DNA of 64,000 nucleotides from Escherichia coli (GCF_044324785.1 NZ_CP172127.1); one strand, 5' to 3'. Numbered from the stretch's first letter, positions 45,320 through 51,176 are shown. The notes: generated from the sequence alone by a model not told the origin. Program-made: numbers and translations.

Positions 45320-46652
<1,333 letters not shown>

Positions 46653-46727
46653 ATTTATTAGCTCAGGTGTGACCTGACCCATCTTTGGCACAGAGCCAAA
46701 CCTGAACTGACGGACCGCTCTGTGCCA

Positions 46728-47069
46728 TTACCTGACGTTGTATTCTTTTATGTTAACACCCTTGATGCTGTATATACCTGTCCGCTTAATTCGCTTACCC
46801 TTTTTATTCGTAATAGTTGCTGTAAGTGTACTGCAGCGAATGGAATGACGTTCATCAATCACCAGCCGAATTGCTTCTGAAGCATCTTCCACCTCTAGAA
46901 GGTCGTGAGTCTTATTTAAGCCGAATGGAACAAGGTGGAAGGCAGTTTTTCCAGATGATTTTCTGGTTATTTTTACTGGATACAACACATCACCACTTTT
47001 ATGGATTAATTCAAGCTGTTCAATGTAAATCATAGCAACTTTCCTTCGTTTATCTGCATGAATATACAA
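46728..47069 (-). CDS. Orphan hypothetical protein in AT-rich DNA (113 aa from TTG; more likely 101 aa from the ATG at 47033)
   Basis: ORF in ~40% GC sequence; internal ATG at 47033 has AGGAAA 6 nt upstream; lysine-rich C-terminus; no family recognised; coding status unproven. Confidence 0.4.
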   Translation of the reverse strand: MYIHADKRRKVAMIYIEQLELIHKSGDVLYPVKITRKSSGKTAFHLVPFGLNKTHDLLEVEDASEAIRLVIDERHSIRCSTLTATITNKKGKRIKRTGIYSIKGVNIKEYNVR

Positions 47070-47120
47070 ACCGAAAATAGGAGATGCAATACAAAAGCTG
47101 TGGAAATATCAAACAGCCTC

Positions 47121-47378
47121 TCAATTTGGCAGGCAGCGTCTGCCAAATCTTTGCCGATGGAAATTCTGCAGACGGTGTCTGCAGAACTTCAACGTGTTGA
47201 TAAAAAGGTAAAAAAGCCTAATTTGGCGTAAGTTTTTTGCAGAGAACCCACGCTTATATCTTAGACTTAAATCCTTTGATAGTCGCTTGATTAGCTGCGC
47301 ACCATACGCAGCCCTAGCCTCGCCACCTTGTTCAAATTCGACAATCCGTCGGCCAATTTCCCAGTACGTCGCGGTCAT
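47121..47378 (-). pseudogene. yhcG: Frameshifted, truncated remnant of yhcG (DUF1016 PD-(D/E)XK nuclease-like)
   Basis: First ~57 codons (MTATYWEIGRRIVEFEQGGEARAAYGAQLIKRLSKDLSLRYKRGFSAKNLRQ) read like the YhcG N-terminus; the frame then degenerates and stops at 85 aa while a plausible continuation (LQTPSAEFPSAKIWQTLPAKL) is in another frame; the ~290 C-terminal codons of the 375-aa K-12 protein are absent. Confidence 0.6.
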
Positions 47379-47487
47379 TAACGCGTTAACACTACGTACC
47401 GTTTCCGTCCGGGCACTATCGAACTGGTGAATAATGTCTCCATGTACCCGCTTGTAGCCTAAATATCGCTACTTTATTTTTAACCAA

Positions 47488-48153
47488 TTAATAATATTTC
47501 AGTGTGATTTCCGCTGTGCCACTGAATTCCATCTTGTCCGTAACATTCAACTCCGACATCGCATTAATCGCAGAGCTGATTTTAAGTGGCACAGTTAGTG
47601 TGGTCAGATTTTGCGGTGAAGATGTACCAAATGCGTAAACGGTTGTGTTATCTGGGCTGACGATCTGCCAATTCCCAGTAGACTTTATCCATGTTGGATT
47701 GCTGCTATCAGTTGCTGAAAGTACAGAAACCCCTGTTCCGTTATCGACGGTAATCCCCATATTATCAATCATAATGGCCCATGCTCCGACCGGCTTATTT
47801 TTGAATAACCCCAGCCCCAGCAGGTCGCTTTGTGTTAATGCGCTACCGAGCGGAATTTTTGCCGCCATTGCAGTACCAGAATTGAGATCTTTAATAAGAA
47901 TCCCTGGGGCAGCGCTGCCTGGACAGCTAATTGATAGTTGGGTATTTTGATCTGGTAAGCGTGTGGCATCCTGGGTATTCATATTTGCAACAATATAGGT
48001 TCCAAGATTAATGACGCTATTCGTCAGGTTAATTGAACAGGAAGGCGGTTCCACCAACGCGCTAACATGGATGGTGATGTCTGCGGCACTGACATTGGTG
48101 GAACAGAAAAGCGTTATCAGGCCAATCAGCGATATTTTATTCATGACTATCAC
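47488..48153 (-). CDS. yhcF: Fimbrial-like protein (DUF1120)
   Basis: 221-aa ORF, GTG start overlapping the yhcE stop, signal peptide, C-terminus FSGTAEITLKYY. Confidence 0.75.
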   Translation of the reverse strand: MIVMNKISLIGLITLFCSTNVSAADITIHVSALVEPPSCSINLTNSVINLGTYIVANMNTQDATRLPDQNTQLSISCPGSAAPGILIKDLNSGTAMAAKIPLGSALTQSDLLGLGLFKNKPVGAWAIMIDNMGITVDNGTGVSVLSATDSSNPTWIKSTGNWQIVSPDNTTVYAFGTSSPQNLTTLTVPLKISSAINAMSELNVTDKMEFSGTAEITLKYY

Positions 48154-48722
48154 TCCGGTCGGCTATTCAGAGAAATGTTCAGGTCGTTGGTGAGCGTAAG
48201 TAAGTCTTGAGGGTTAATATCCTTGCCTGTGATCAATGGCAGTATCGCCAGTTGTACACTGGCCTGTGTTAGCGCCTGTTCGCGATCATGCTGCATAAAA
48301 GATATACCTTCCGAAGGTAATAAAACAATATTAGATGTACCGCCGTCTTGAAGTTGGTTGCTCACGGAAACACGAGACACAGAGGCACTCTGACCGCCTA
48401 TTGTCGGATTAGAGGCTTTGACTCGTATCACGCTCTGCTCGCCAAACTTAAATAGTGATTTTCCTTTATATGTCAATTTATTACCGTCAATCATGACGTG
48501 TACATAATGTGGTGAATCGCATTGAATATTCAGCGTAATATAGCGTTCTGGCAACGCAATACCATCCACCACCGTGGTATTGATGGTGTGTAATGTGCGT
48601 GAAGAACGATCAACCTTTCCCCAGGCAATATCCTGTTGGTTGGCTGTCACCTTACAGTTCTCGGCCAACGTAAATTGACTAAAAAAACAGGTTATTAGCA
48701 GAAGAGCCAAAGATGTTTTCAT
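48150..48722 (-). CDS. yhcE: Fimbrial-like protein, intact
   Basis: 190-aa uninterrupted ORF with signal peptide MKTSLALLLITCFFSQFTLA; no IS sequence present. Confidence 0.75.
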   Translation of the reverse strand: MKTSLALLLITCFFSQFTLAENCKVTANQQDIAWGKVDRSSRTLHTINTTVVDGIALPERYITLNIQCDSPHYVHVMIDGNKLTYKGKSLFKFGEQSVIRVKASNPTIGGQSASVSRVSVSNQLQDGGTSNIVLLPSEGISFMQHDREQALTQASVQLAILPLITGKDINPQDLLTLTNDLNISLNSRPE

Positions 48723-48734
48723 CTTGTTATTTCC

Positions 48735-51176
48735 TTATAAACAATGAGCTTGAACCGTTTCGTATACCACACTATCAGGCGCATCTTTGGGTAACGTATA
48801 TTGTAGATGGCATATTTTGCCATCAGGAAGAATAACCTTAAGAGTGTCCGTATTATTTTCAATGTTATTAATAAAGAAGGTGCCTTCTTCAACAACGGAG
48901 GTCAGATAGTTTCCCTGTGCGGTATGAACAGAACTATTCAGAGGTAAAAGGGCATTATTGAATCGCACATCCTGGAACATCACCCGACGTGCTGATAGCA
49001 CGGTGAAGGAAATACTTCCGACTGAATAACGCCCTTGTTTAACTTCTTGAGTAGCGTTTGCAATATCGGTTTTTTTAGCCAATGATTTGGGGTCAATTTC
49101 AACAATTGCCGTCTGGTACGGAGGTAAAACGGGCACAACAGCTTGCCCCCACCAGTCAGTCCATGCGGCACCCTGTGGCGTTTGAATTTGGACGCCAGCC
49201 TGTTTTTGGCTCAATTGGGCAATGGCCCAGGTATCAGCGATCCTGTCCGGGGAAAAGGTTATTCCATCCTTGTGCAGAGCGATCCCGCCATCAAGCGTGG
49301 CAGAAGAATAATGGCTGTCCGAGCCGCTTTGTCCCGCAGATAGTCCGAGGCGAGTATAATGTAGGTTAGTATTAAGGCCACCGCTGGCATTATTGCCACT
49401 ATCTTGGCTACGTTCATAGCTGACATAATAACTACTGTCTTTCAGGAAGGCGCCAGAAAGCGTTGAGCCAATGCGAGTATCATTATTTTCATGTCGCACC
49501 CAACTACTGGAATAATGGTTACCTAAAGGCACGTAAACAGTAAGGTTAAGTGAGTCTTCACTGTCATTTCCTTTTTCATGCCGGTAATAAAAATTGGTGG
49601 AGAAATATTTAAACTGCCTACTCCAGTTTATTGTGGTGTTAGTTGAATCACCGTCACGATAATAGCTTTTATTATTGGTATAACTTAGGCTAATTCCACC
49701 TAATAAATCGTGATACCAGGTCAGCGATCCAGTAAGCTCATTTTTATTGTAGGCATAGAATTTATTGTCATCTCCATAATCCCATGGTTGGTCGCTGATA
49801 TCGTCATTTTGCGTGGAATCAAGCAAATCGCGATAACCTCGCTCACTCCAGGTGTCGGTAACGGAAAAGCTTAAATTATCCAGCAGGTCTGCACCTAACG
49901 TGATCGCTGCCTGATTCCCTCGCTTATTATGATTATCATCGACCGCACTTCGGAGCTGAATAGAAGTTGACCAGTGAGTGAAAGGCTGAAAATCAACCCC
50001 GCCAGCAAAAGCATAATAGTTATTTGCGACGATGCCGCCTGTCGATAAAGTATAAGTATTAAAAACCGGCTGACTCCAGGCACCGCTTAACACCATCGGT
50101 TCGTCATCTTCTGCACCAACCTCGCGAACCCGGCCTACGGCAAAATTGTAGTTTGGTGTTCCTGTCACCGTTCGACGGAAAGAATCGCTAAAAACAGTAA
50201 ACTGGTCGCTACTCCCATCGCTTTCGATAACTGTCACATCCAGGTTACTGCTTTGATTCAGGACTGGAACGTTGGTTAAAGTAAATGGTCCCATTGGAGC
50301 CAAAGTAGAATAAATAAGCTGTTTATTTTGTCGGATTTCAATGCGTGCTTGCGATGATTTGACATTACCAGAAACCATCACATCATTACGTCTGTTTGGG
50401 GTTAGCGAAATATCAGGTTGTATCTGTACACCGTAAAGTGAGGCGCCGGAAAGTAGGGGGTTGGCAAGGTTGATCCCGCCTGCCTGCATATTTATTTTGC
50501 TTGCGGTGAAAGTATGTTCGGCATAAGTATAGAGATTGTCGAGATTGTGATCGCCATTAGATAAGGCAACCGAGGTACTATTACGTATTATCCAGTCGCC
50601 CATATTGATGCCGCTTTGTAGCGCAGCACTGGTATAATTATCATTATCGCCGTTATATTTATTAATATTATGCAATAATGAATAGTTTATAGTCGCCCCC
50701 GTCCCTCCAGTGGTGTAACCGCTAACCTCATCTGGGGATTGTAAGGCAATCGCCTCTGTCGGTAATAACACAAAGACTTTGTATTGCGCCGAATCGAAAT
50801 GTACCACCGCTGATGGATAGAGCATCTGCAATGTTTGGCAACGGTCGTCAGTTTCCGTTAAATTTTGTGGGATGATGACACCAGCTCTTTGCATCCAGTT
50901 AGTGTCAGCGCAAAGTTCGCCTTGTGGGTCAATAGTGATGGTAACATTGACATTTCGGTGACCATTAATGTCCATATTGACCTGTTGCGTGCCGGGAGGA
51001 AGACGTGCTTCTTTTGAAAAATAAGCCGCAACATTTTTATCTATACCAAATGAGCGTAACGCATCGCTATTGAAGTTAAGAGCGGTCTCCATCTCTTCCT
51101 GCGACGAAGCTGCCATAGCTATAATAGGAATAAAATGCAGCACTAGAAAGATCTTGTTGAGGGGAAAATATTTCAA
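48735..51176 (-). CDS. yhcD: Fimbrial outer-membrane usher
   Basis: 813-aa ORF with usher-type beta-barrel pattern and conserved C-terminal Cys pair; start may be at an internal Met. Confidence 0.9.
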   Translation of the reverse strand: MKYFPLNKIFLVLHFIPIIAMAASSQEEMETALNFNSDALRSFGIDKNVAAYFSKEARLPPGTQQVNMDINGHRNVNVTITIDPQGELCADTNWMQRAGVIIPQNLTETDDRCQTLQMLYPSAVVHFDSAQYKVFVLLPTEAIALQSPDEVSGYTTGGTGATINYSLLHNINKYNGDNDNYTSAALQSGINMGDWIIRNSTSVALSNGDHNLDNLYTYAEHTFTASKINMQAGGINLANPLLSGASLYGVQIQPDISLTPNRRNDVMVSGNVKSSQARIEIRQNKQLIYSTLAPMGPFTLTNVPVLNQSSNLDVTVIESDGSSDQFTVFSDSFRRTVTGTPNYNFAVGRVREVGAEDDEPMVLSGAWSQPVFNTYTLSTGGIVANNYYAFAGGVDFQPFTHWSTSIQLRSAVDDNHNKRGNQAAITLGADLLDNLSFSVTDTWSERGYRDLLDSTQNDDISDQPWDYGDDNKFYAYNKNELTGSLTWYHDLLGGISLSYTNNKSYYRDGDSTNTTINWSRQFKYFSTNFYYRHEKGNDSEDSLNLTVYVPLGNHYSSSWVRHENNDTRIGSTLSGAFLKDSSYYVSYERSQDSGNNASGGLNTNLHYTRLGLSAGQSGSDSHYSSATLDGGIALHKDGITFSPDRIADTWAIAQLSQKQAGVQIQTPQGAAWTDWWGQAVVPVLPPYQTAIVEIDPKSLAKKTDIANATQEVKQGRYSVGSISFTVLSARRVMFQDVRFNNALLPLNSSVHTAQGNYLTSVVEEGTFFINNIENNTDTLKVILPDGKICHLQYTLPKDAPDSVVYETVQAHCL

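Follow-up and report, generated by a model that had tools for sequence, protein, structure and literature searches.

Paired palindromes in a decayed Escherichia coli yhcG gene are probably native copies of a translated hairpin unit conserved in the YhcG/DUF1016 family

Two adjacent palindromes lie within yhcG in a 64,000-nucleotide stretch of E. coli DNA (hereafter the window, with positions counted from its first letter). We found that they are probably (probability about 0.8) surviving copies of a native, structurally conserved hairpin unit, which is repeated in tandem and translated in frame, and that yhcG has decayed around them. For the window, this means that the palindromes are native and unremarkable parts of a gene that has decayed, and neither a new mobile element nor a nicking site. 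For the family, it means that a conserved stem-loop lies within the coding region of a nuclease that is very widespread, uncharacterised and listed as a candidate for phage defence. This conserved translated hairpin does not appear to have been described so far: the literature search found nothing linking DUF1016/YhcG or PDC-S02 with a hairpin or palindrome, and Rfam 15 held no family for the region or for four homologous loci, giving chance-level matches only (E >0.7).

The palindromes of the window

The first palindrome, TTGGCAG-gcagcgt-CTGCCAA, is present at 47126-47146 as initially annotated, and its perfect arms are 9 bp long, not 7 (ATTTGGCAG at 47124-47132 and CTGCCAAAT at 47140-47148). 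With a 3-nt loop it forms an 11-bp stem that includes one G.T pair (47133.47139). The second palindrome, TTCTGCAGAC-ggt-GTCTGCAGAA, was also correctly described, and occupies 47164-47186 as a perfect 10-bp stem with a 3-nt loop (arms 47164-47173 and 47177-47186), reaching 14 bp if one mismatch is allowed (47160-47173 and 47177-47190). The two had been said to share the core CTGC(A/C)GAC; a common core does exist, but its actual sequence is CAGAC/GTCTG. Both palindromes represent a single direct repeat of 39 nt, whose copies are spaced 39 nt apart.

In the whole window, 10 perfect hairpins (arms of at least 9 bp, loops of 3-8 nt) were found against a chance expectation of about 1.5 by our own arithmetic, and most of the other eight resemble terminators. 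Folding of the minus-strand RNA of 47115-47195 gave z = -5.5. A covariance model of the hairpin family (R1) recognised only two sites in the 64 kb, and these were the two palindromes, named here unit A (47122-47150; 30.9 bits, E 2e-8) and unit B (47161-47189; 34.3 bits, E 1e-9); the next best site in the window had an E of about 0.9. Both palindromes are thus real and non-random. Alignment to K-12 showed that unit A is equivalent to unit 3 of K-12 yhcG, which codes for IWQTLSAK in the intact gene and is a perfect 11-bp stem there (locus L002, 2335-2359). Unit B combines parts of K-12 units 2 and 1, which were joined when 39 nt were deleted from unit to unit. Both sites have the stem of 8-13 bp, the 3-nt loop and the consensus that define the element, and both align to K-12 units.

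The yhcG remnant

The remnant of yhcG lies at 47124-47435 on the minus strand, comprises the DUF1016_N part only, and is homologous to positions 2335-2686 of the K-12 locus. It is convergent with nanQ (yhcH; 46188-46652, plus strand, 95% identity to K-12), a conserved neighbour by which the locus is identified as that of yhcG, and the order of nanK and nanQ on the plus strand followed by yhcG on the minus strand, downstream of nanK, is that of the standard Escherichia yhcG locus. The segment 47124-47378(-) matches PF17761 (E 7.5e-19) over profile positions 21-81 only. No match to PF06250 (YhcG_C, the PD-(D/E)XK nuclease) was found in the window ORF, and the homology ends at 47124. At the other end, the first ~15 codons are missing, and a stop codon stands upstream of the homologous part.

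Two small lesions were located between these ends. In a T run (47199-47208, minus strand; an A run on the plus strand), one nucleotide is missing, as revealed by a single-base gap relative to K-12 and by the translation of ORF 47121-47378. This deletion is the actual frameshift of the window gene (...LFYLF|INTLKFCRHRLQNF...), and the shifted reading ends as ...LFYLF|INTLKFCRHRLQNFHRQRFGRRCLPN*. A 39-column gap relative to K-12 and to S10 showed that exactly one 13-codon unit of 39 nt has been lost, so that K-12 units 2 and 1 are fused into palindrome 2; the junction may fall at any point of the right arm that the fused units have in common, within 47177-47190. At 47123/47124, the outer foot of palindrome 1, homology to intact yhcG comes to an end. 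The initial annotation had put the palindromes exactly where the frame breaks, which holds approximately: the frame is lost 13-20 nt from palindrome 2, and it is the end of homology that falls at the foot of palindrome 1.

With its nuclease domain and intact frame lost, the window yhcG is a dead relic and not a working member of the family. The truncated arrangement is common to 718 of 5,426 complete E. coli genomes, and the truncated allele of those genomes still has three units and no frameshift (protein P0137), so the window copy is a further-decayed derivative of it.

The intact gene

In K-12, yhcG is intact at the same locus, with 375 codons and both the DUF1016_N and YhcG_C domains (PF06250, E 8e-57). 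It contains three tandem, in-frame units of 39 nt (13 codons), encoding EIHQTMSGELTPLG, IPQTPSAEFPSAK and IWQTLSAKSFPLP, and each of them is a palindrome of the form AATT..CAGAC-nnn-GTCTG..AATT. The alignment to intact alleles that the initial annotation had proposed as a check showed that both palindromes are native and in frame, corresponding to units 2 and 3 of the three. This is the very observation that the annotation had named as decisive, and it refutes two of its suggestions, that the palindromes are a small inserted repeat and that they are themselves the damage to the gene; the lesions are the T-run frameshift, the loss of a unit, the replacement of the 3' part and the loss of the 5' end.

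The number of units varies. E. coli YhcG alleles of 349, 362 and 375 aa carry 1, 2 and 3 units, and alignments of enterobacterial homologues showed 1-4 units. In the AlphaFold2 model of K-12 YhcG, pLDDT falls below 50 at residues 101-131, which are the repeat units, suggesting that they sit in a disordered loop of the protein. The PDB contained no sequence relative of YhcG, and Foldseek returned generic PD-(D/E)XK folds only (EndoMS, Bax1 and Can2, with E of 0.007 or higher). K-12 YhcG matches PDC-S02, a PADLOC candidate for single-gene defence (E 2e-131); this refers to the intact gene, and the relic beside nanQ keeps the N-terminal part of the gene without the nuclease domain. Many of the PDC-S02 sub-models span only residues ~10-110.

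A fourth K-12 copy, ATTCTGCAGAC-act-GTCTGCAGAAT, lies beyond the stop codon in the nanQ-yhcG spacer, 15 nt past the stop codon (16 on the coding strand). The three units within the gene fold at -61.8 kcal/mol (z = -11.7). Such stable stems, with one copy standing between the convergent nanQ and yhcG, might be expected of intrinsic terminators or attenuators, and the T run found 11 nt ahead of unit 1 in enterobacteria, where frameshifted fragments are common, might suggest that the stems stimulate a programmed frameshift. We consider both ideas very unlikely. No T/U tract follows the stems, and a terminator scan called neither palindrome. The T run is confined to enterobacteria (Burkholderiaceae have, for example, ...FYLAWPAAEIFQT... 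in its place), and the frameshifts of the window and of another locus (L043) are mutations in the DNA.

Conservation in the YhcG/DUF1016 family

We compared 80 homologous loci from genome contigs, whose proteins are 40-98% identical to K-12 YhcG. They come from Enterobacteriaceae, Burkholderiaceae, Coxiellaceae, Pasteurellaceae, Propionibacteriaceae, Bifidobacteriaceae, Acidobacteriota, Planctomycetota, Verrucomicrobiota, Cyanobacteria, Chloroflexota and Chryseobacterium; in summary, the range of the hairpin runs from Proteobacteria to Acidobacteria, Planctomycetes, Cyanobacteria and Bacteroidota. In nearly all 80 loci, the linker peptide I-x-Q-T-x-S-(A/G)-(K/E/Q) is encoded by ATT-NNN-CAGAC-nnn-GTCTG-N'N'N'-AAT, a stem-loop of 25-29 nt in which the loop is always 3 nt long and variable in sequence.

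The middle triplet varies among loci, and its partner remains complementary to it. For residues 2 and 7-8, V..AQ goes with the triplets GTG/CAC, F..GK with TTC/GAA, L..GE with CTC/GAG, W..AK with TGG/CCA, S..AK with TCG/CGA, P..AE with CCG/CGG, and C..GK with TGC/GCA, and in a Phycisphaerales gene CCGAC...GTCGG is found in all three units. Three variable pairs alternate among UA, GC and CG. Over 82 distinct units, chosen by their 5-bp core so that only pairs 6-11 are informative, paired cells amounted to 92.6% compared with 80.2% in shuffled alignments (23-47% in slid-partner controls), double-change cells numbered 110 compared with 41, and the covariation score was 0.285 compared with 0.080. 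For each of these three measures, 0 of 500 shuffles reached the observed value, a count that is not a probability, since the sequences are phylogenetically related and the shuffle control overstates significance.

The synonymous codons of the motif are almost fixed. Ser is TCT in 62 of 62 cases (14% elsewhere in the same genes), Ile is ATT in 61 of 62 (32%), Gln-8 is CAA in 19 of 19 (28%), Lys is AAA in 28 of 28 (44%), and Glu is GAA in 15 of 15 (43%), and the bias is seen in genes whose G+C content ranges from 36 to 68%. The linker is also rich in perfect hairpins with a 3-nt loop and arms of 8 bp or more: it has 4.16 of them per kb, against 0.064 per kb in the remainder of these genes, and at least one was found in 57 of 76 loci. 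Some lineages have degenerate hairpins or none, for example Bifidobacteriaceae (L055/L056), L065 and L067.

In distant, phage-borne members of the family (34-40% identity), this position is again occupied by a stem with a loop of 3 nt, but both its sequence and the peptide differ. These stems are TGTGGGAC-act-GTCCCACA (peptide CGTLSH), AAAAGGTGAGAC-gct-GTCTCACCTTTT (KGETLSHL), AATTTGTGCGAC-agc-GTCGCATAAATT (ICATASHKL), CTCGCAAC-gct-GTTGCGAG (LATLLRE) and AATTCGGCAGTC-att-GACCGCCGAATT (IRQSLTAEF), and in the last of them both the core and Thr/Ser are swapped. Their cores are GGGAC/GTCCC, GAGAC/GTCTC, GCGAC/GTCGC, GCAAC/GTTGC and the swapped GTC/GAC. Because the distant relatives alter the peptide yet keep the stem, what is conserved is the nucleic-acid hairpin and not the peptide; as far as these sequences tell, the peptide follows the stem and not the reverse.

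The opposite reading, that selection acts on the peptide of the repeat (I-x-Q-T-x-S-A/G-K/E) and that the palindromy of the DNA is incidental, would draw on the wide distribution of the motif, on its constant reading frame in 110 of 112 units, and on its inclusion in Pfam DUF1016_N. It is hardly credible, since changes at residue 2 are matched at residues 7-8 just as base pairing would require, since synonymous codons are fixed against genomic usage even at ~65% G+C, and since distant members keep the stem with other peptides (LATLLRE, CGTLSH, GETLSH, ICATASHKL, QSLT). The copy beyond the stop codon is likewise retained and co-varying, and the region is predicted to be disordered.

A functionless palindrome might also perpetuate itself under weak coding constraint, if template switching at quasipalindromes copied one arm onto the other. 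In E. coli, mutational hotspots are known to arise when quasipalindromes are corrected in this way. The units are clearly prone to mutation and rearrangement, and G.T pairs show no excess over A.C pairs, as this process would allow. We give it a small though appreciable chance; it leaves unaccounted for the persistence of the hairpin at one codon position across phyla, down to ~35-40% protein identity, and its 65-fold enrichment over the rest of the gene. In many Paraburkholderia species, moreover, the second unit is mismatched and the first is perfect, which indicates that correction is inefficient. For gene-finders and dN/dS analyses, the hairpin is a clear instance of an apparent peptide motif whose true nature is that of a nucleic-acid motif.

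Occurrence outside the linker

Of the hairpin cores in the 80 loci, 107 are inside the genes and 5 outside, all 5 just past the stop codon. Across 83 homologous loci (~460 kb), the covariance model matched only the linker position, apart from the post-stop copies, which were found in Escherichia and in one Gemmataceae genome. The Escherichia post-stop copy also co-varies (CTG/CAG and CTC/GAG). The genome-wide search for the palindrome that had been proposed was carried out with a 39-nt probe in E. coli genomes, and its results gave no support to a scattered repeat: in 4,277 genomes the probe matched the yhcG locus only, at a median of 3 places each, and no plasmid was matched. The hairpin unit is not a dispersed repeat.

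In viral contigs, a 16-base pattern of the hairpin was found 41 times, about 24 times inside DUF1016 genes and 17 times outside them. The middle triplets are complementary in 11 of these 17 copies, where chance would give about 1 in 64, and several of these copies lie in non-coding DNA next to genes for RhuM, AbiEii, AAA_21, a large serine recombinase or PDDEXK_9/SocA. A profile search of the flanks of the viral copies for DUF1016 remnants found only one, which was weak (L124, E 0.002).

These non-coding viral copies, together with the position of the palindromes beside the frameshift and the end of yhcG homology, are what would be expected if the palindromes had disrupted a previously uninterrupted yhcG, either as a small repeat that moved or was inserted there (REP-, MITE- or RPE-like) or as the lesion itself. 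Given that the units stand in frame, at the same codon position, in K-12 and in homologues across phyla, and that no further copies exist in the 64-kb window, in the flanks of the 83 loci or away from the yhcG locus in E. coli genomes, practically nothing is left of this explanation.

Comparison with known elements

Rickettsia palindromic elements (RPEs) are translated in frame, are ~100-150 bp long, are scattered over many unrelated genes within a single genus, and are regarded as selfish insertions. Like them, the YhcG hairpin is palindromic DNA inside an ORF, tolerated there since it codes for a surface or disordered segment of the protein, and the symmetry of the nucleic acid dictates the peptide. 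Unlike them, it is 25-29 nt long and keeps one fixed position in one gene family across phyla (80 loci), where only its copy number varies, apart from a few copies in viral contigs outside DUF1016 genes. It resembles REP/BIME sequences in being a short, imperfect palindrome that can fold into a stem-loop, and one of its copies is extragenic, between convergent genes; those elements are dispersed in hundreds of extragenic copies, whereas the YhcG hairpin has another sequence, is mostly coding, and is found only at the yhcG locus.

The ToxI-like repeats of type III toxin-antitoxin systems are ~36 nt long, non-coding and placed upstream of the toxin ORF, and they form pseudoknots that are processed by the toxin. 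By analogy, the YhcG units may be compared to them in being tandem, with a period of 36-39 nt, and in lying 5' of the nuclease-encoding part of a defence-type gene. They differ in being translated within the ORF, and many homologues have a single unit. As to integron attC and IS200/IS605 sites, the YhcG loci have no recurrent integrase or Y1 partner, and no GTTRRRY-type core was seen by inspection. The YhcG hairpin lacks at least one defining feature of each of RPEs, REPs and type III antitoxin repeats.

Possible function of the hairpin

The conservation of the stem suggests that the hairpin would be a cis-acting structural element of the YhcG nuclease gene. It might act in the mRNA, by controlling translation or stability between the N-terminal and nuclease parts, which we regard as plausible at somewhat less than even odds. 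Slightly more doubtful is that a hairpin or cruciform of the DNA is used or recognised in cis. Our weighing of RNA against DNA was based on the loop, which is always 3 nt, on the G.T pairs, which are not favoured over A.C (10 compared with 13, a small count confounded by coding constraints), on the lack of a T tract after the stem, and on the copy outside the coding sequence. A broader and equally tentative proposal is that the hairpin serves as a functional DNA or RNA module, encoded by the gene of a widespread candidate anti-phage nuclease itself. The module would be recognised by the nuclease or a host factor, would gate the expression or activity of the nuclease half, and would mark the boundary at which that half is lost or exchanged. 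If this were true, the hairpin would represent a new class of conserved translated cis-element, in which base pairing dictates protein sequence across phyla. The conservation is strict enough to fix synonymous codons and to dictate a disordered peptide, and it offers a cheap experimental handle on YhcG.

Rearrangements at the hairpin units

A segment of 470 bp (46654-47123), absent from K-12, stands between the nanQ stop codon and hairpin A, where the break in homology shows that it joins yhcG at the foot of the hairpin. It replaces the 3' part of yhcG with the nuclease domain, as well as the post-stop hairpin, and the same segment (98.7% identical) is present in the 718 E. coli genomes. It contains an orphan ORF (46728-47069, minus strand) annotated as 'transposase' in RefSeq, for which no match was found in Pfam, NCBIfam or PADLOC. 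On a Klebsiella plasmid, a homologue of this ORF adjoins an IS110 element. An IS110 origin of the segment was considered and rejected: the IS ends ~50 nt before the homologous part, and 1,500 other copies of the IS are without the segment. The junction of the segment is one event inherited by descent, and its coincidence with the foot of the hairpin could be due to chance.

The initial annotation had proposed the paired palindromes as a possible recombination or nicking target. This holds in the weaker sense that rearrangements occur at the units, namely the unit deletion in the window, the copy number of 1-4, a deletion between two hairpins in another Escherichia contig (below), and the join to foreign DNA where the last unit has its foot. 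Nothing points to a recombinase or nickase. In its stronger form, a site-specific recombinase, transposase or nickase would have acted on the hairpins and imported the 470-bp segment. The exact join at the outer foot of hairpin A agrees with this, as do the name of the ORF, the homologue beside IS110 on Klebsiella plasmids, and some intergenic hairpin copies that abut other genes, including that of a large serine recombinase. We nevertheless consider it unlikely. The ORF has no support from Pfam, NCBIfam or PADLOC, the IS110 element ends before the homologous segment, which is thus not part of it, the junction counts as one event by descent, and the other rearrangements are plain repeat-mediated deletions. 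The ORFs flanking 62 non-enteric loci were heterogeneous, with no recurrent recombinase or partner; among 124 flanking ORFs of yhcG homologues, five matched the phage integrase family and four matched IS240.

One such deletion was found in an Escherichia metagenomic contig (L126), in which the sequence from the first in-gene hairpin to the post-stop hairpin has been precisely removed. The two copies are ~800 bp apart; the whole nuclease module is gone, and one hybrid hairpin is left. Many N-terminal-only fragments of Escherichia, Salmonella and others lose the reading frame in the T run that directly precedes unit 1, and their tails, like that of L043, are out-of-frame readings of the hairpin; the fragments were read at the protein level, and the frameshifts of L043 and the window are mutations in DNA.

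The coincidence of rearrangements with the hairpin units is suggestive. The repeated hairpins of native yhcG may accordingly be viewed as fragile, recombination-prone points of the gene. The simplest mechanism would be breakage through repeat or slipped-strand misalignment promoted by the hairpins, with no dedicated enzyme. Slipped-strand or repeat-mediated deletion, together with quasipalindrome mutagenesis, fits the loss and gain of units, the deletion between hairpins and the homopolymer frameshifts; it accounts for the breakage but not for the conservation of the hairpin. Breakpoints at the hairpin may explain many of the proteins annotated as 'DUF1016 N-terminal domain-containing' fragments, a link that is suggestive. 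Many DUF1016_N fragments appear to end at or just before the hairpin array.

Possible horizontal spread, and recurrent lesions, of yhcG-type genes

We compared the loci of YhcG homologues (L024-L082) and found 53-65% identity across phyla as far apart as Proteobacteria, Actinomycetota, Acidobacteriota and Planctomycetota. The neighbouring genes were heterogeneous and included those for integrases, IS240 transposases, HU and Rep3. Such identities and neighbourhoods suggest that yhcG homologues are solitary genes subject to frequent horizontal transfer.

A short T homopolymer (47199-47208) lies 11 nt upstream of unit 1, a copy of the palindromic repeat (hairpin) native to yhcG. Frameshifts at this run were found to recur in Escherichia, Salmonella and other lineages, with examples in the window itself (47199-47208), at the fetched locus L043 and in the YhcG-related proteins P0145, P0149 and P0168-P0196, and in every case the tail after the frameshift was an out-of-frame reading of the hairpin. 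The run beside the stem could be a mutational hotspot; alternatively, inactivation of the nuclease may have been favoured by selection on repeated occasions.

Alleles that involve the post-stop hairpin, an extra copy of the repeat after the stop codon, were represented by L126 (gene 95-445) and by proteins P0157 and P0019. In L126, a metagenome contig of Escherichia, a precise deletion runs from the in-gene hairpin to the post-stop hairpin, and the nuclease module is lost. The stop of the P0019 allele is read through into the post-stop hairpin, and ILQTLSGES is encoded again.

yhcG-type hairpins not within a recognisable DUF1016 gene were also located in viral contigs (L088 at 5813, L092 at 3424, L104 at 9938/9961, L113 at 6506 and L121 at 4740/6062), where they are set in AT-rich non-coding DNA and adjoin genes for RhuM, AAA_21, a large serine recombinase, AbiEii and PDDEXK_9/SocA. 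The L104 copies form a pair of abutting hairpins with 12-bp arms, 4 nt from the predicted ORF of the recombinase.

DNA flanking the yhcG relic

To the right of the relic, fimbrial subunit, chaperone and usher genes occupy 47488-51176 on the minus strand. A megablast search of 47436-48200 and beyond, covering these genes, against 5,426 complete E. coli genomes gave no match, and nanK-nanQ of the window is only ~95% identical to K-12. Probably, either the window stems from a divergent lineage of Escherichia or its fimbrial genes form a rare island.

Within the foreign 470 bp that replaces the 3' part of yhcG, an orphan ORF (46728-47069, minus strand, 102/113 aa) is labelled 'transposase' in RefSeq (WP_000639208.1). 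Searches of Pfam, NCBIfam and PADLOC returned no match for it; the annotation looks unsupported. A partial homologue, 73% identical, is found in Klebsiella plasmids immediately outside an IS110 element. The left end of the foreign DNA holds an ~85-nt segment (46656-46740), which may be a small repeat element, with a perfect 11-bp inverted repeat, TGGCACAGAGC / GCTCTGTGCCA (46686-46696 / 46717-46727), around a 20-nt spacer. Further copies of this segment, ~77-82% identical, occur at unannotated sites of other E. coli genomic islands, and one of them (L083) adjoins H-NS-like and SEC-C genes.
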